Source of the DNA: a virus
Lineage: Duplodnaviria > Heunggongvirae > Uroviricota > Caudoviricetes
IMG/VR virus record: IMGVR_UViG_2529293142_000030
Span: 1 to 7,593 of that record
Reading direction: 5' to 3' (one strand)
DNA length: 7,593 bases
Within the stretch, counting starts at the first letter, position 1. Each line of letters opens with the position of its first letter. The position numbers were made by a program, and so were the translations under genes. Below, one piece after another: positions 1 through 7,593 of the stretch. The notes under the pieces were generated by a model. The model did no database searches. It saw only the letters and a list, made by a program, of their open reading frames with translations, and was not told the DNA's origin.

Positions 1-315
1 CTAGAAAATCTGCATAAGGGGGAGAAATCCCCCACCTGTAATAACATAACTACTAAAATTAACACCTTGTTCGCACAACTCCTCCACCAGCACGACAAGA
101 TGCCGCACACTGCGCCCCAGCCGATCCAGCTTCCAGACAACCAGAGTGTCACCTGCCGATAATGTCCTGAGCAGTTTTTTCAGTCCCGGCCTTTCGGACT
201 TTGTACCGCTTATCTTGTCTTCAAAAAACAGCTCGCATCCTGCACAGTTCAGCGCATTACGTTGTAGATCTGTGTTCTGGTCATTTGTTGACACACGTAC
301 ATAGCCAATAAGCAT
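1..315 (-). pseudogene. Serine DNA invertase (Hin/Gin/Pin/Cin family), 3'-truncated: only ~92 family-like N-terminal residues, then 17 unrelated codons and a stop
   Basis: Minus-strand ORF. From ATG at 315-313 it reads MLIGYVRVSTNDQNTDLQRNAL...GDTLVVWKLDRLGRS...EELCEQGVNF, matching the N-terminal catalytic domain of Gin/Pin/Hin invertases (catalytic Ser in VRVSTNDQ). After ...VNF (plus coord ~55-58) the expected continuation (RSLTDSIDTSS..GRFFFHV.. and the C-terminal HTH domain) is absent in all three frames; the ORF ends at TAG 3-1. RBS GGGAG lies ~8 nt upstream of ATG 315. The extra N-terminal residues in the ORF track ([12 protein letters not shown], 351-316) are an upstream extension, not gene. 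Confidence 0.75.
18..33 (-). terminator. Possible stem-loop at the 3' end of the truncated invertase ORF (6-bp GC stem, 4-nt loop)
   Basis: Plus strand 18-33 = GGGGGA GAAA TCCCCC, a perfect 6-bp inverted repeat. On the minus strand the hairpin is followed by TTATGCAGATTTTCT, only moderately U-rich. Weak support as a rho-independent terminator. Confidence 0.25.
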
Positions 316-369
316 GGTAGATCTCCCTGACAAAAGCAGGAATGATGCCATTTGCTCGTTATTTCTGCA

Positions 370-395
370 TTTTCATAAACGTTGGTTTGGGAGAA
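370..395. other. 26-bp invertase crossover site (hix/gix/pix-like), invertase-proximal boundary of the invertible segment
   Basis: TTTTCATAAACG-TT-GGTTTGGGAGAA: two 12-bp half-sites resembling the Hin/Gin half-site (TTATCaAAAACC-like) around a central dinucleotide at 382-383. The inner half plus core (382-395) is the exact reverse complement of 2240-2253. Confidence 0.7.
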
Positions 396-755
396 GCGGC
401 AAAACGGGGGGTGGGAACAGGGGAAAATCAGATACCGGACATGGCTTCATTTAGTGGGGTGAGGGATTATTACGGAAAACAACTTTTGCCAGGAGGGTTG
501 ATACTTCAGTGGCTGACGATTCCATCAAGTGCAGCAGCCAAAGCTGTAACACTGAATAATGGTAATTATCAGCTGTCAGGGTATAAATGGCCCCAGTCAT
601 TTGGTGTCCTGTTTGCTGTGTTTGCTACAAAAGTTTCTGGCTCGACTAACGAAGCATATGCAATCTCAGTTAATCGTCACTCTACCGATGTAATTGTCAC
701 CTGGAATGCCCGTAAGGCTGATGATGTCCACATTTTAGGAATTGGGAAATTATGA
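384..755 (+). CDS. Silent alternative tail-fibre C-terminal (receptor-binding) cassette; promoterless and start-less, expressed only after inversion as a fusion to the constant fibre N-terminus
   Basis: Open frame from the crossover core to TGA 753-755 (123 codons: [20 protein letters not shown]...HILGIGKL). It is in the same codon phase relative to the crossover dinucleotide as the expressed fibre gene. Its stop overlaps the downstream tfa start (ATGA at 752-755). The ORF-track N-terminus 342-383 lies outside the segment and is not considered real. Confidence 0.6.
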
Positions 756-1171
756 AAATGAAATGGTCCCCATCTGTTCAGGGATTTTTCTCTGAAAATA
801 ACAGCGATATTCCCGATGATGCTTTCGATATTGAAGATGCTCTTTATTATGAACTTATGAATGGTCAGAGTACGGGGAAAATTATTATCAATAACCCGGA
901 TAACTACCCTGTACTTACTGAATATCCAGCGAAGACACAGGAACAGGAAATAGCTGAAGCGGAGGGAATGAAAAGTATACTTATTGAACAGGCCAACGAA
1001 TACATGAACAGTAAGCAATGGCCTGGTAAAGCCGCTATTGGTCGTCTGAAAGGTGAGGAACTGGCGCAATATAATTTGTGGCTGGATTACCTGGACGCAC
1101 TGGAACTGGTGGATACCTCCAGTGCCCCAGATATTGAATGGCCTACGCCTCCGGCAGTTCAGGCCAGATGA
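752..1171 (+). CDS. Tail-fibre assembly protein (Tfa/gpU-type chaperone) paired with the silent fibre cassette
   Basis: 139 aa with the conserved Tfa C-terminal signature ...[28 protein letters not shown] 752 overlaps the stop of the upstream cassette. Convergent with, and overlapping by 29 bp, the other tfa gene. Confidence 0.8.
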
Positions 1172-1745
1172 CATCAGGCGCGGTGCTGGTATCTGTTGCC
1201 GCCACCGCGTCAATGTAATCCAGCACAGCGTTAAGCCGGTTTTTTTCTGCCTGCATCAGCTTCCGTCCGGCCTGTAATTTCAGCTGAATCAGACTAATGG
1301 AAGCCATTGCAGCATCAATCAGTGACTGGCGCTGTGCTTCTGCCGCTTCTACAGCGGCGCTATGCTGTGCCTCGGTATCCGTGACCCATTTCTCACCATC
1401 CCATTTATCGTATGGCGTTAACGGGACGATAGTGGTTGTATTTTCAGGGTAATCACCCGGAGCTGTGATTTCTTTTGATTCTCCCGTTTCGGTGTTATAG
1501 ACAACTTCTCCGCGATGGTCTGGCACATATTCCCATGAGTTTAAATCTGCCGAACGGCAGATTGCATAACCAGCCTTATGTGTGCCAGGAGCATCTAAAC
1601 AGGAATATGCAGGGATACCGACACCCACAGCAAGATATTCAGTTGATGTGGAAATATATTCCCGTGTTTCACCATCATAATTATAAACGGTAATATCTCC
1701 CGCCTTTGTGGTGATGAGTTCCTTATTTAATATAGCTTTATCCAT
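1143..1745 (-). CDS. Tail-fibre assembly protein (Tfa/gpU-type chaperone) for the currently expressed fibre
   Basis: 200 aa ending ...[27 protein letters not shown] (conserved Tfa C-terminus). The start overlaps the fibre stop as TGATG (1747-1743), indicating translational coupling. Confidence 0.85.
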   Translation of the reverse strand: MDKAILNKELITTKAGDITVYNYDGETREYISTSTEYLAVGVGIPAYSCLDAPGTHKAGYAICRSADLNSWEYVPDHRGEVVYNTETGESKEITAPGDYPENTTTIVPLTPYDKWDGEKWVTDTEAQHSAAVEAAEAQRQSLIDAAMASISLIQLKLQAGRKLMQAEKNRLNAVLDYIDAVAATDTSTAPDVIWPELPEA

Positions 1746-2608
1746 CAGGCAGCCCTTACGATATAATTAAAAGCGATGTTACGAGGACGAGTTTCTGTAC
1801 CTACATTTCCACTAATTTCGCCAAAACGTTTTACACTACGAGTACTAATAGCTCGTAGTGAGGAAGGTACCTTAATACCGGGTTCGTCTGTTTTAACTAT
1901 TCCCCCGTCACCGTATGTAGCCAGTATTCCTGGGTTTACGCCTTCCCGTGCACTTCCTGCGGCGAGTCCGCCCCCTGTCCATAATTCCATATAGTGTGCA
2001 TGGTCCAAAATTGTGTGTGGCTGCCAATTAAGCAAAGCGCGACCAGTATCAATCCCGCGACCGTCATCCCAGCCACGAATAAATTCACCGCGTAAATCAG
2101 GCAATTTATTGGTCGGGTAAGCCTTTGCCAGTTCCGGGTATTCTTCAGCAGAAAAAGCCGCACCATTGCATTTCAGCCAGCCTGTTGGCGGTGTGGCTGA
2201 AGGCCACGGAACAGGTACACCAACGGGTAACGCTGAGCCTTCTCCCAAACCAAGGTTTTCGAGAGCCGTTTTCACCGTGCCATCCGATTTGATATCGCCA
2301 AACGGATTCTTGCGGCTCAGGTATTCAACAGCAAACCCCGATCCCAGCAATTCAACAAAACCGGGCAGATCACCATTATCAAGCACATCCCGTTGCGTTT
2401 TATCACTTACAAACTGGGCCAGAGCTGCAGCAATAAAGCTGGCCTGCCGAATAACCTTATTGACTTGCGCACTGGAGGCTTTCCCTGCTGTAAATCCAGA
2501 TAAAAGCGCGGGCAACGCTTCCCATTCCTCCTGCGATATAACATTGGCATTTCGATCCGTTGCAAACGCTTTAAAGTCATTTTTCGCCATCAGAGTAATA
2601 CTCCCCAT
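1745..2608 (-). CDS. Tail fibre protein; constant N-terminal part (outside segment) fused to a variable C-terminal collar-type receptor-binding domain (inside segment)
   Basis: 287-aa ORF. The C-terminal part carries the phage tail-collar/fibre motif set (GWLKCNG...[22 protein letters not shown]...[15 protein letters not shown]). The crossover site sits at codons ~114-122 ([10 protein letters not shown]). Alternative start ATG 2590 (MAKNDF...) overlaps the upstream gene stop as TGATG and has GGGGAG ~10 nt upstream, so the true start may be 2590 rather than 2608. Confidence 0.8.
2240..2265. other. 26-bp invertase crossover site (hix/gix/pix-like), distal boundary of the invertible segment, inside the tail-fibre gene
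   Basis: TTCTCCCAAACC-AA-GGTTTTCGAGAG. The outer half-site reverse complement is CTCTCGAAAACC (hix-like TTCTTGAAAACC). The inner 14 bp are the perfect inverted copy of 382-395. Confidence 0.7.
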
Positions 2609-3270
2609 GCTCCTACATCAAAACCACTGATGAATTCGTTATCCATATCAAAACCAAAAAATTTTGAGCCTTCCGATGGGGTTTCCACCGAAGGTGTTTC
2701 AATGCCACCCGCCCATACCCCGGCGGCTTTTACTGTGAGATACCCCTGTTTAATTGCCGCAATTAACTCACGCGATACATCTGAAATATCAGTATCAGGA
2801 AAGACCCAGACCGATATCGTCATGTCCTGGTTATCGACTATCTGCATTCGCAGCCCGGATCCTGCTGTTGCCGCGTCAAGAATTGCCGGAAGCGAATCAT
2901 TCCGTCCGTCCCAGTTATTAATCGCAATCTTCGCTTTAAGAATGACACGATAAGTTTCATCGCTGAGATACATGTATCCTGAATCAGGATCGTATGGTCC
3001 CTGCCATACCCCCTGATCATATCCAAGCCCGTCGGTATCCCAGCTGAAATAGACACCTGAGATAGGCTGGCTGACAACACGGCTACGTCCGATCCACAAT
3101 CCAAGGATGTCAAGTTGCACACCAACCGCAGAGTCAATATCAAATGCACTAATCAGCCCTCTGGTGGCAGCCGCAACATCAATAAGTGGCCGGGTCATCA
3201 GATCAACATGCGCAAGAAATTTAGGTTTGGTGGCGTGGTAGTTCGTGATTAGTTCGGTGTATTTGCTCAT
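2590..3270 (-). CDS. Phage tail/baseplate protein, P2 gpI / Mu gp48-like (YmfQ/DUF2313-like)
   Basis: 226-aa ORF in the synteny position between the baseplate J-like gene and the tail fibre. Start ATG 3270 overlaps the J stop (ATGA). Assignment is by position and general resemblance to e14 YmfQ-type proteins, not by a clear motif. Confidence 0.6.
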
Positions 3271-4466
3271 GACTCCACCGTTATAACGATATTTTCCGGG
3301 GTACAGGACGCAGATTCGTTGTATCTGATATCAATGTTTGATGACGACAAAGCCCCCGGGGATTTCCCAATCGTCAGTTCCTGAATATCGTAATAGCGTG
3401 CATTCCCGCCACTCACCACGCCAAGATTCGCCGGTGAGTAAATGCGACTTAAAAGGACCGAATCACCAATCATCAGACTATTGATATAGTCGGAAATAGC
3501 CTGCTGGATCTGCTGCCCTATCTGTGAGGTATAACCCGTAAAAACTTTTAATTTGATCCGGGCATAAACAGGTACATCACTGGAACGCGAGAACTTGATT
3601 ACATGGGGATTGCCGTATTTATCCGGAACCGTAACGGATGTTGTACCGTGAGTGGCTGTCCCCTGACCTTTATTCCCTCTGATAGCCTGAGCAATATCCG
3701 TCACATCACCGCCATCCACAATTACAGCAACAGAGTGTGGCGGTAACCCGTTACCGTCCTCCGAACCAGTATCGTTTTCATAGAGTTTGTGGCGGGTTAC
3801 ACCTGTAACATTAGAAACAGCACCATCCAGTGCTTCAAATGGGGTTATTGATGGCAACGCAACACTTTGCGACTGGCGGATACGTAACTCAGCGTCAGTT
3901 TCTGCCGGAGTGCCCACAGTGGCTGCAGCAGGATTGGTTACCGAAACCCAGCCACGGGTTGGCGTATTAATTTCAGTGATAGTTCCAGCCAGCGCCGCCA
4001 CTGCACCACTGACGGAACATGTTGCGGTCACCATCACTGTACCATCCACGCCTACCACCACTGAAGCAGGCAAACGCCATATCACATTATTACTGTCTTT
4101 CACGCTGCCATTAATGATGGTTGTTCCGGCAGTTCCTGTAAGAAGCAAATCAACCGTAGAATTCGTCGCGCCTTTACGTGAAATACCATTTATTTTCACG
4201 TTACTGGTCAGTGCGGCTCCATAGCCGGTTGCTGGTGAAAAACAGTTATAGACAGTTATCGCCATATTATTGGCATCATGAATCGCCAGCGCCATCAGAG
4301 CCACCATCTGGCCGTCTTTACTGTCTGGTTCGAGGTAGGCATCACTGCCATAAATCTGCTGAAAATAGCTAATCAGGGTGCTGAGTATCGTCTGATAATC
4401 AGGCGCACTGATCCCCTCCGCGGTTACCTTTGCAGATAAACCGAGAGAATCAAGGTTCAGAGCCAT
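3267..4466 (-). CDS. Baseplate J-like protein (P2 gpJ / Mu gp47 family)
   Basis: 399-aa ORF of typical size and composition for baseplate J-family proteins. Start overlaps the upstream gene stop (TAATG at 4468-4464), stop overlaps the downstream start. Sits in the conserved V-W-J-I-fibre order. Confidence 0.75.
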   Translation of the reverse strand: MALNLDSLGLSAKVTAEGISAPDYQTILSTLISYFQQIYGSDAYLEPDSKDGQMVALMALAIHDANNMAITVYNCFSPATGYGAALTSNVKINGISRKGATNSTVDLLLTGTAGTTIINGSVKDSNNVIWRLPASVVVGVDGTVMVTATCSVSGAVAALAGTITEINTPTRGWVSVTNPAAATVGTPAETDAELRIRQSQSVALPSITPFEALDGAVSNVTGVTRHKLYENDTGSEDGNGLPPHSVAVIVDGGDVTDIAQAIRGNKGQGTATHGTTSVTVPDKYGNPHVIKFSRSSDVPVYARIKLKVFTGYTSQIGQQIQQAISDYINSLMIGDSVLLSRIYSPANLGVVSGGNARYYDIQELTIGKSPGALSSSNIDIRYNESASCTPENIVITVES

Positions 4467-4819
4467 TACGCCTCCGATGTAACAGTCGTTATTCCATAGA
4501 GAGTGTCGATTTCAGTGGAAAACCTGACACGTCGGGTCGTGGTATCCACCGTAGTATTGAAAGAGAGGATTGATTTAACGCCCCGCGTTTCGAGGATGCG
4601 CTTACGGATCGCCAAGTTGTAGGTTTCCGGCTTCTGCTTACCGAGTACGGACTGGATCCACGGAGTCCCCTCGGTGGTGTCGAGAAACCATTGCCCATAC
4701 CACAATTCGAATCGCGTTTTTACCGCCTGCGCCACGGCCTCCGGTGAGTTAATCAGCCAGGTGTCATCACCGCTGCCAAAGGTGTAATCGCCATCGGCGT
4801 CTTCACGTCTGTATCGCAT
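4466..4819 (-). CDS. Small baseplate protein, gpW / Mu gp46-like (gp25-type wedge protein), assigned by position
   Basis: 117-aa ORF, coupled on both sides (TGATG at 4821-4817; TAATG at 4468-4464). Size and location between the V-like and J-like genes match gpW/gp46. No strong motif recognised. Confidence 0.55.
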   Translation of the reverse strand: MRYRREDADGDYTFGSGDDTWLINSPEAVAQAVKTRFELWYGQWFLDTTEGTPWIQSVLGKQKPETYNLAIRKRILETRGVKSILSFNTTVDTTTRRVRFSTEIDTLYGITTVTSEA

Positions 4820-5481
4820 CAGTTTACTCCGTCGGTATTGCTTCCACCGCGCTGAACACCACCATGAGTGTGCGTATCATCGATTGGCTTGCCGTTAGCC
4901 TTCACGCTACCCAAAAACTCAACAGCACCAGTGATTTTTGAAGCCACACCAGAAACCACAGACCCCACCATGCCACCCATCCAGGTTAACAGGCCATGTA
5001 TGGTTACTTTCTCAGAAAAATCAGCCAGAGGGGCAACCACATCAAGACCACCCGGAGCGACAATTTTAATTTTCCTGGTATCAGGATTAAGCTCAAAATA
5101 GGTGCTGCCGTCGTCACTACGCAACTGTGTGGCACTGGTATTAATACCGCTAATCTTCCTCGCCTGCGACTGGGGACCGACAATACAAAACGCATCCGAT
5201 AAATCATGCATTCTGTCATCAACAGGCTCCTGTATCCCGCCGTTCTGCCACCAGAAATCAATACAACGATCGGCAAAAACGACAAGACACTCATCCCCGG
5301 CTTTTACCGGAAAAGTCAACGTACAGCCTCCGCCGCGCGGGAATACCACTGGCACATCCACCAGCAATGGGTAATTTTTGGTAATGCGGTTACCGTAGTT
5401 ATCCTTTTCAACCGAACGGATAGCTGGCTGCACAACCGCCGTCACCGCGTCAGGATCGAATGACTGAATAATGCCAGGCAA
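4819..5481 (-). pseudogene. Baseplate spike/hub protein, P2 gpV / Mu gp45-like, 5'-truncated by the IS66-family insertion
   Basis: 220-codon open frame with a gpV-like C-terminus (..GKPIDDTHTHGGVQRGGSNTDGVN) and a GII-containing N-terminal region that in P2 gpV lies ~20 residues in. No ATG start: the frame opens at a TTG at 5481-5479, directly abutting the IS end, and upstream in-frame codons are IS sequence with a stop at 5517-5515. The body of the gene is otherwise uninterrupted. Confidence 0.6.
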
Positions 5482-5568
5482 GGGTAAGCGTAAACCGACC
5501 GCCGTATGTAGCCATTAGACAAGAATTGGTAACTTAGACGCCCATCTGACACAGACGGACATCTAAGT

Positions 5569-5988
5569 ATGGAATTACAGGACTGGCGAAAAGAACCTCG
5601 TAAAAAGTATTCGAATGAATTCAAACTTCGTATGGTTGAACTGGCATCACAACCCGGTGCTTGTGTGGCTCAGATTGCACGAGAAAATGGCGTCAATGAT
5701 AATGTTATTTTCAAATGGCTCAGACTCTGGCAAAACGAAGGGCGTATATCACGGCGTCTTCCGGTGACAACCACTTCTGACGCAGGCCTTGAATTATTAC
5801 CTGTAGAGATAACGCCTGATGAGCCGAAAGAACCGATGGCTGCTCTTACTCCGCCCTTATCCACTCAGACTACTGTCAGTGCCAGCTCCTGCAAGGTGGA
5901 GTTCCGTCACGGTAACATGACGCTGGAAAATCCTTCACCAGAGCTGCTCACTGTATTGATTCGTGAACTGACCGGGAGGGGAAGATGA
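5569..5988 (+). CDS. tnpA: IS66-family accessory protein TnpA (orfA, HTH-containing)
   Basis: 139 aa with the typical IS66 orfA segment ...FKLRMVELASQPGACVAQIARENGVNDNVIFKWLR... Stop overlaps the orfB start (ATGA at 5985-5988). Confidence 0.85.
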   Translation: MELQDWRKEPRKKYSNEFKLRMVELASQPGACVAQIARENGVNDNVIFKWLRLWQNEGRISRRLPVTTTSDAGLELLPVEITPDEPKEPMAALTPPLSTQTTVSASSCKVEFRHGNMTLENPSPELLTVLIRELTGRGR

Positions 5989-6317
5989 TCTCACTCCCAT
6001 CCGGTACCCGTATCTGGCTCGTTGCCGGGATAACCGATATGCGTAAGTCTTTCAACGGGCTGGGTGAACAGGTACAGCATGTGTTAAATGTTAATCCCTT
6101 CTCCGGTCACCTGTTTATCTTCCGTGGCCGACGGGGTGACACCGTTAAAATTCTTTGGGCTGATGCTGATGGTCTGTGCCTGTTCACCAAACGTCTGGAG
6201 GAAGGCCAGTTTATCTGGCCTGCGGTGCGTGACGGTAAGGTATCCATTACCCGCTCGCAACTGGCAATGCTCCTCGATAAGCTGGACTGGCGTCAGCCAA
6301 AAAACATCCCGCCTTAA
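5985..6317 (+). CDS. tnpB: IS66-family Orf2 protein TnpB
   Basis: 110 aa, MISLPSGTRIWLVAGITDMRKSFNGLGEQV...LFIFRGRRGDTVKILWADADGLCLFTKRLEEGQFIWP: the hallmark IS66 Orf2 pattern. Translationally coupled to orfA. Confidence 0.9.
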   Translation: MISLPSGTRIWLVAGITDMRKSFNGLGEQVQHVLNVNPFSGHLFIFRGRRGDTVKILWADADGLCLFTKRLEEGQFIWPAVRDGKVSITRSQLAMLLDKLDWRQPKNIPP

Positions 6318-6367
6318 CGCCCTGACAATGTTGTAAAAAACGCCTGGCCGCATTATAAAAACGGCCA

Positions 6368-7593
6368 TGAGTCAGAAATACCTCATTCGCATTGCAGAAC
6401 TGGAAAGCCAGCTCCGTCAGAAAGACCAGCAACTGAGTCTGGTTGAAGAGACGGCGGCCTTCCTGCGCTCTGCACTGGCACGTGCCGAAGAAAAGATCGA
6501 AGAGGATGAACGGGAAATAGAACATCTGCGGGCTCAGATAGAAAAACTGCGCCGGATGCTGTTCGGTACCCGTTCTGAAAAACTGCGTCGTGAAGTTGAA
6601 CAGGCTGAGGCCCTGCTGAAACAACGCGAACAGGACAGCGATCGTTGCAGTGGGCGGGAAGACGATCCACAGGTTCCCCGCCAGTTGCGACAGTCGCGCC
6701 ATCGTCGTCCGTTACCGGCACACCTTCCCCGTGAAATACACCGTCTGGAGTCTGAAGAAAGCTGTTGCCCGGAGTGTGGCGGTGAGCTGGATTATCTGGG
6801 GGAAGTCAGTGCAGAACAACTGGAACTGGTGAGCAGCGCCCTGAAAGTGATCCGCACAGAACGGGTAAAAAAAGCCTGTACAAAATGTGACTGCATCGTT
6901 GAAGCACCGGCGCCGTCCCGCCCGATAGAGCGTGGTATCGCGGGCCCCGGATTACTTGCCCGCGTGTTAACGGGAAAATACTGCGAACACCTGCCACTGT
7001 ATCGTCAGAGTGAAATCTTTGCCCGACAGGGTGTCGAACTGAGCCGTGCATTACTCTCCAACTGGGTTGACGCGTGCTGCCAGTTAATGACACCGCTGAA
7101 TGATGCCCTGTACCGTTATGTGATGAATACCCGCAAGCTTCACACTGACGACACACCGGTAAAGGTACTGGCACCGGGCCTGAAAAAGACGAAAACAGGG
7201 CGCATCTGGACGTATGTCCGGGATGATCGCAATGCGGGTTCGTCATCTCCTCCGGCGGTCTGGTTCGCGTACTCACCGAACCGGCAGGGGAAACACCCGG
7301 AGCAACACCTCCGCCCCTTCCGGGGTATCCTGCAGGCGGATGCGTTCACAGGTTATGACAGGCTGTTCAGTGCAGAACGTGAAGGTGGTGCGCTGACAGA
7401 AGTTGCGTGCTGGGCCCATGCCCGGAGAAAAATCCACGATGTATACATCAGCAGCAAAAGTGCGACGGCAGAAGAAGCCCTGAAGCGAATCAGTGAACTG
7501 TACGCCATCGAGGATGAAATACGGGGATTACCAGAGTCAGAGCGTCTTGCAGTCAGACAGCAGCGAAGCAAAGCGTTAACTGACGTCGCTGCA
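6368..7593 (+). CDS. tnpC: IS66-family DDE transposase TnpC, 3'-partial (first ~408 codons; continues beyond window)
   Basis: Own translation from ATG 6368 (in-frame stop at 6356-6358 upstream): MSQKYLIRIAELESQLRQKDQQL... (coiled-coil/leucine-zipper-like N-terminus), zinc-finger motif CCPECGGEL..(x)..CTKCDC, then ..GKYCEHLPLYRQSEIFARQGVELSRALLSNWV...HTDDTPVKVL...RIWTYVRDDRNAG...PAVWFAYSPNRQGKHP...CWAHARRKIHDVY.., all typical of IS66 transposases. No stop before 7593. It is absent from the supplied ORF track because it lacks an in-window stop. Confidence 0.9.

Follow-up and report, generated by a model that had tools for sequence, protein, structure and literature searches.

The DNA analyzed here, a stretch of 7,593 nucleotides from the viral record IMGVR_UViG_2529293142_000030 that is referred to throughout as the window, carries on its minus strand a frame for a central tail spike that opens without an ATG beside what looks like the end of an insertion sequence (IS). 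The question raised by this locus is whether that frame is the remainder of a gene split by the IS, a shortened gene working from a start of its own, one edge of a larger rearrangement or a product of assembly. The explanation that we favor, with a probability of about 0.88, is that a 2505-bp element of the IS66 family transposed into an otherwise intact prophage and split the spike gene by simple insertion.

Organization of the locus

The minus strand of the window is the end of a contractile-tail prophage module, and the host is E. coli. The prophage is of the temperate myovirus type and its chromosomal site adjoins yfhH-tadA-mltF in E. coli. A related E. coli prophage that is intact combines a complete set of structural genes with a Q-type antiterminator and an invertible fibre segment, and in intact relatives the spike gene lies deep within a long block of head and tail genes on the same strand, downstream of the Q-type antiterminator gene. 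The features of the window are as follows.

1-351, minus strand: serine recombinase (invertase) gene, running off the left window edge
342-1171, plus strand: alternative fibre-end and assembly genes
1143-1745, minus strand: fibre assembly protein gene
1745-2608, minus strand: tail fibre gene with a Collar domain
2590-3270, minus strand: gene for a DUF2612 wedge protein
3267-4466, minus strand: baseplate J gene
4466-4819, minus strand: sheath-initiator or gp25-like baseplate gene (ORF list and sequence; PF10934 recorded for an identical product)
4819-5481, minus strand: spike remnant, codons 31-250 and the stop of the intact gene (ORF list)
5476-5483, unstranded: left copy of the 8-bp target duplication, AGGCAAGG (CCTTGCCT in gene orientation), identified from the right-junction contigs
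5484-7593, plus strand: left 2110 bases of the IS66-family element (99.9% identity to copies in E. coli MINF_2E and elsewhere)
5484-5507, plus strand: left terminal inverted repeat, GTAAGCGTAAACCGACCGCCGTAT (end comparison of the full 2505-bp copy)
5569-5988, plus strand: tnpA, 139 aa, helix-turn-helix accessory protein (PF01527, E=7.4e-13; reference copies annotated as IS66-like TnpA)
5985-6317, plus strand: tnpB, 110 aa, compared with 116 aa in reference copies (PF05717, E=1.1e-36)
6367-7593 (window end), plus strand: tnpC, DDE transposase, first 409 of about 530 codons (PF03050, E=1.4e-69; PF13007; PF13005)

At the other end of the window, 20-bp inverted repeats at 377-396 and 2239-2258 (AAACGTTGGTTTGGGAGAAG and its complement, 95% complementary) bound a 1.9-kb tail-fibre segment. 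On contig L008, which has the same spike remnant and stops at the junction, this segment lies in the opposite orientation to that of the window, so that the fibre switch has flipped between isolates that are close relatives. The invertase beside the segment is cut to 104 residues, against 182 in intact pinE, and then gives way to unrelated sequence; similarity to pinE ends at about 49-55 in the window, and the same 104-aa form is found in L007 and L008. Inversion of the segment would need an invertase supplied in trans from another prophage.

The left junction

The minus-strand ORF at 4819-5481 comprises 220 codons with no internal stops and opens at a TTG (5481-5479). The 11 in-frame codons before this TTG (WLHTAVGLRLP), themselves preceded by a stop, contain no ATG, GTG or TTG, and the motif GTAAGCG occupies 5484-5490. 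An earlier, sequence-only reading of the window had described the uninterrupted 220-codon frame, its lack of an ATG, its TTG opening and the position of the motif correctly; it had also placed the TTG abutting GTAAGCG, and the two are indeed adjacent, save that two bases, GG (5482-5483), lie between them and still belong to the spike gene.

When the query 4819-5700 was searched against 5,426 complete E. coli genomes, many spike genes matched query positions 1-665 (window 4819-5483) with up to 99.8% identity, and none extended into the IS part. A three-way alignment gave identity through ...GCCAGGCAAGG and divergence from base 5484 onward, similarity to uninterrupted spike genes ending exactly at 5483. 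The same junction was present in four contigs (L007 and L012-L014), and the exact 220-aa ORF was found in eight contigs, each a separate NCBI draft assembly (about 18 samples). Exact scans of a one-genome-per-species collection and of JGI metagenomes returned neither the left nor the predicted right junction, and the left junction was absent from all complete E. coli RefSeq genomes searched. No complete E. coli RefSeq genome exceeded about 97% identity over window positions 1-5483, and the pre-insertion state was therefore taken from less close relatives.

The IS66-family element

From 5484 to 7593 the window matches, at 99.9% identity and over the full length, copies on the chromosome of E. 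coli MINF_2E and two of its plasmids as well as in many other records, and the matching copies in RefSeq E. coli genomes are annotated as tnpA, tnpB and tnpC of the IS66 family. Reference copies measure 2505 bp, which places the right end of the element about 400 bases past the window edge. Four independent copies in unrelated contexts all begin at the base equivalent to 5484 and end 2505 bases later; the earlier reading had allowed that the IS end might on proper alignment lie well upstream of 5481, and these copies place it at 5484. With similarity to the spike gene ending at 5483, the IS beginning one base further on and Pfam matches to all three tnp products, the proposal that an IS66-family element stands inside the 5' end of the spike gene is borne out.

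Ends of the GTAAGCG type are said to define the IS66 family, a definition attributed to Han et al. 2001 on IS679 and IS66. The right repeat (IRR), reverse-complemented, reads GTAAGCGTCAACGGAGCACCGTAT and matches the left repeat (IRL), the only one inside the window, at 20 of 24 bases by manual count. Exact look-up of TnpA returned other insertion sites only, and these were used for duplication statistics, in which perfect 8-bp duplications flanked 7 of 11 full IS copies. An 8-bp target duplication is also stated for IS66 (PMC6778807). The element resembles IS66 of Agrobacterium and IS679 and ISEc8 of E. coli in the order tnpA, tnpB (PF05717), tnpC, in a tnpC product that is a DDE transposase with leucine-zipper and zinc-finger regions, and in its imperfect terminal repeats starting from GTAAGCG, its 8-bp duplication and its length of about 2.5 kb, with no difference of substance. 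In gene order, terminal repeats and target duplication it agrees with the IS66 family, and it is essentially identical to the RefSeq-annotated copies.

Two single-base differences set the window's copy apart. An extra A at 6299 (A6 versus A5), absent from L007 of the same lineage, shifts the tnpB frame near its end, and an extra A at 7578 (AA versus A) shifts the tnpC frame relative to reference copies. They are sequencing errors in homopolymers or else inactivating mutations private to this copy, and the one at 6299 may be such an error; the 110-aa frameshifted TnpB had no exact match in the protein collection.

The right junction and reconstruction of the intact gene

Short-read assemblies break within the IS, the right end of which lies outside the window. 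Simple insertion with an 8-bp duplication predicts at that end a 40-residue ORF (MAISDQ…RVALP followed by VSVNGAPY and a stop) that reads into the right inverted repeat. Exact protein look-up recovered precisely this fusion ORF in at least 10 contigs, from NCBI assemblies and Logan runs, together with a partial form of 31 residues where contigs had been cut back to the edge of the repeat, and a homology search returned a 39-residue fusion variant of another allele among cluster representatives. The fact that the 40-residue ORF was missing among the cluster representatives was considered as a hint of deletion and was dropped, the exact look-up having found the ORF inside a cluster.

The right-junction contigs read ...GTCGCCTTGCCT up to the junction and GTAAGCGTCAACGG beyond it (in longer form, …ATCCGCGTCGCCTTGCCT followed by GTAAGCGTCAACGGAGCACCGTATTGA…), so that in these other public assemblies the right end of the IS directly adjoins bases 1-96 of the spike gene; the IS portion is identical to the reference over 298 bases. 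Further upstream the contigs carry genes for the major capsid, sheath, tube, chaperone, tape measure, a Dit-like protein and a plug, then genes of 354, 115, 184 and 56 aa, with at least 16 kb of upstream prophage genes in all. The start codon, the ribosome-binding site and the upstream genes are thus on the other side of the IS, in agreement with the earlier statement that it separates the tail module from upstream sequence. The 8 bases that lead up to the right repeat (CCTTGCCT) recur beyond the left repeat in the window (5483-5476, minus strand) as an exact duplication. Joined after removal of one duplication copy, the flank from right-junction contig L032 and that of the window give a 753-base ORF with a single mismatch to the intact gene of strain 2013C-4465. 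Since the two flanks rebuild the whole gene, the event was a simple transposition, and the 5' codons were displaced by 2.5 kb and not deleted. The sequence-only reading had taken roughly the first 15-20 codons to be missing and to have been removed; alignment to intact genes puts the missing part at 88 bases (30 residues), and the 5' fragment stands with the duplication at the IS right end in other assemblies. Its suggestion to look there for an 8-bp duplication and for the missing codons proved sound, both having been found, with CCTTGCCT on either side of the element and the right side provided by the other assemblies. No sample accession is listed for both a left-junction and a right-junction contig; that the two junctions belong to one genome is what we infer from their exact 8-bp complementarity and from the allele that they share.

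The element entered after base 88 of the target copy kept on the window side, in codon 30 of the 250 that make up the central spike gene, and the 8 bases CCTTGCCT were duplicated in the process. The 5' piece retains 32 codons along with its start codon and Shine-Dalgarno sequence, and to these the right end of the IS adds 8 codons and a stop, giving a 40-residue peptide. The 3' piece consists of 220 codons with no start codon, ribosome-binding site or promoter of its own. Transcripts of the baseplate and fibre genes beyond it would have to come from the upstream late operon, by antisense read-through of the IS.

A different outcome in the window's own genome, which we consider improbable, is a subsequent deletion or inversion ending at the IS, perhaps through recombination with a second copy of it, after which the 5' fragment and the upstream genes would no longer adjoin it. 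The right end of the IS does lie outside the window, many E. coli genomes have several copies of the element (at a median of 3 and a maximum of 47 places per genome), IS66-mediated deletions have been documented (PMC6778807), and the same prophage in the same lineage has a truncated invertase gene and is therefore decaying. Against such a rearrangement, however, the exact complementary right junction, with its intact 8-bp duplication and matching allele, is found in many assemblies together with the 16 kb or more of upstream prophage genes.

The spike remnant compared with intact copies

Intact spike genes in complete E. coli genomes are 753 bases long and encode 250 aa, and the remnant is 99.8% identical to their 3' 665 bases. 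The 88 bases missing on the window side of the IS correspond to 29 codons and one base; the ATG and the Shine-Dalgarno sequence are also absent on that side, the intact gene having CAGGAG eight bases ahead of its ATG. Judged from this alignment, the TTG is the codon for Leu31 of the intact protein (…IRVA-L-PGIIQSF…) and no natural start. The earlier reading had called for comparison with uninterrupted homologous prophages and had recognized that homologues naturally starting at this TTG would count against an insertion; none of the intact 250-aa genes does so, and the spikes of phages SEN34, Mulock, yong1 and Magia also start upstream.

In a Pfam search the remnant matched PF18352 with E=1.3e-44 (residues 1-102 against profile positions 1-98 of 98) and the Apex motif PF18946 with 21.4 bits, against a cut-off of 20.8. 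Nine PDB sequences match the spike (9ndy, 4ru3, 8eon, 9b45, 7yfz, 3pqi and others), with E-values down to 1.7e-13, and all nine of these solved homologues have about 22 or more residues ahead of the truncation point, as estimated from alignment offsets. Klebsiella phage Mulock and Hafnia phage yong1 conserve the N-terminal 30 or so residues, which in Salmonella phage SEN34 are near-identical, and the annotated spike of Burkholderia phage Magia begins some 15 residues ahead of the truncation point. A complete PF18352 spike has its own start codon and is extended at the N-terminus by about 20-30 residues; the remnant has neither and is a pseudogene fragment of a member of the PF18352-type spike family.

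Many NCBI records of E. coli and Salmonella give N-terminal fragments of the spike at contig ends (P0002, P0009, P0011, P0025 and others) the label “translation initiation factor IF-2, partial”, a misnomer that appears to be a propagated misannotation.

Transcription and translation signals

No Shine-Dalgarno-like motif occurs in the 40 bases that precede the TTG (…GGTCGGTTTACGCTTACCC). A crude consensus scan, of a kind that would miss weak or hybrid promoters, gave no sigma-70-like site on the minus strand between 4700 and 7593 and none in the whole reference IS, and the 120 bases upstream of the TTG, read by eye, offered poor hexamers only. The genes tnpA-tnpB-tnpC are on the strand opposite the spike remnant and directed away from it, so that transcription of the IS genes cannot drive the remnant; read-through from these genes into the downstream baseplate and fibre genes, as had been suggested, is for the same reason impossible. 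The remnant could be transcribed only via antisense read-through from the upstream phage operon or from an unrecognised outward promoter. A scan of the antisense strand of the IS showed no terminator-like hairpin, and the downstream genes could therefore still be transcribed by read-through. In what we consider the likeliest state, the late transcript, if still made, could cross the IS in antisense and reach the baseplate and fibre genes, the first of which (4466-4819) has its own GGAG seven bases upstream of an ATG that overlaps the spike stop (TGATG). Presumably no functional spike would be made, and with it no complete baseplate, leaving the prophage defective.

In intact relatives a terminator-like hairpin (a 9-bp stem with 6 G-C pairs, and a T run) lies 22 bases upstream of the spike ATG (L001 6776-6797, minus strand). 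The same hairpin is found in right-junction contig L032 and is absent from the window; it sits inside an apparent long late operon.

It is very improbable that the 220-codon frame is a working gene read from the TTG, which would supply a shortened but functional spike and keep the tail module active. In its favor, the PF18352 domain is complete and starts at residue 1 of the truncated frame, and the 220-aa ORF is called by gene callers and free of internal stops. Yet in the intact gene this TTG encodes an internal Leu, upstream of it there is neither a Shine-Dalgarno motif nor a promoter-like site, and the N-terminal extension that would be dispensed with is conserved among enterobacterial phages and present in the solved homologues. 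Moreover, the IS is 99.9% identical to other copies, which indicates a recent insertion, so that the open frame says nothing on selection. An assembly artefact joining a prophage contig to an IS contig is hardly credible: misjoins at IS elements are frequent and two homopolymer length differences lie inside the window's IS, but the identical left junction occurs in contigs from several independent assemblies and the reciprocal right junction, with its perfect 8-bp fit, in another 8 contigs, which come from different assemblies and sequencing runs.

For annotation, simple insertion means that the 220-codon frame should be treated as the 3' part of an interrupted gene and not as a TTG-initiated protein, and the 40-residue ORF at the other end as a fusion artefact. 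The insertion most likely leaves the prophage unable to build a tail; its practical consequences are small and it raises no new biological question, although it provides a clean marker for one E. coli lineage.

Relation to known spikes and phages

Spikes of the PF18352 type (phi92 gp138, 3pqi; Pam3 gp20, 7yfz; also 4ru3 and 8eon) have in common with the intact relatives an N-terminal domain, a beta-structured shaft and a C-terminal HxH apex, as well as a gene order that runs from spike through sheath initiator, baseplate J and wedge to fibre. The window copy differs from them in being without the first 30 residues, the start codon and the ribosome-binding site. With gpV of phage P2, to which the sequence-only reading had likened the protein, the spike shares the short apex motif (PF18946) and the role, that of the central spike with which a contractile tail pierces the membrane. 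It differs in having no N-terminal domain of the gpV type, PF18352 and Apex being the only domains listed at E <= 0.001. The term “V-like” thus holds for role and apex and, judged by domain content, is a functional analogy and not membership of the gpV family.

Among the named phages searched, Salmonella phage SEN34 (genus Brunovirus) has a spike 67.7% identical to that of the intact relative, and four Escherichia phages (including vB_EcoM-689R2, -611R5 and -606R2) have spikes 97.6% identical to it; the gene is uninterrupted in all of these. Inactivation of a prophage gene by IS insertion is an already known and ordinary event.

Other insertions in related prophages

IS insertions are common in this prophage family. 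A prophage of the same family with a different allele (L016; Logan SRR31565350 contig 239, position 10094) carries the same IS right end in the same orientation. Its junction (...GTCGCCTTG) and that described above (...GTCGCCTTGCCT) are 3 bp apart, the L016 junction corresponding to about window 5478-5486, and in that stretch the L016 allele is identical to the copy in E. coli IAI1. Because of the 3-bp offset, in an element that normally makes 8-bp duplications, the L016 insertion is probably an independent one rather than a shared event. Whether the first 90-odd bases of the spike gene form a preferred landing site for this IS66-family element is a matter for tentative suggestion, and we think it rather doubtful; if true, it would point either to recurrent selection for spike knockout or to a target preference of the element, whose family chooses its targets in a way that is poorly understood.

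Two further candidates for insertions at or near this site were rejected. ISCro1, another IS66-family element, in E. coli FDAARGOS_1059 (L017 4532-7147) was considered as a spike insertion and instead interrupts a fibre-assembly gene; the related prophage in that strain is at the same site next to yfhH and has a frameshifted invertase and a frameshifted baseplate gene. Fragment P0008, a candidate for a further IS junction three codons away on the upstream side, marks the edge of a deletion in a prophage remnant beside chromosomal genes. In L045 and L046 (3001-3132; JGI 3300012829, Logan SRR6474705), from another host, the spike gene stops after about codon 27 at a deletion edge, and chromosomal genes for a flavodoxin-like reductase and LysR regulators then follow; this, too, is a prophage remnant and no IS junction.
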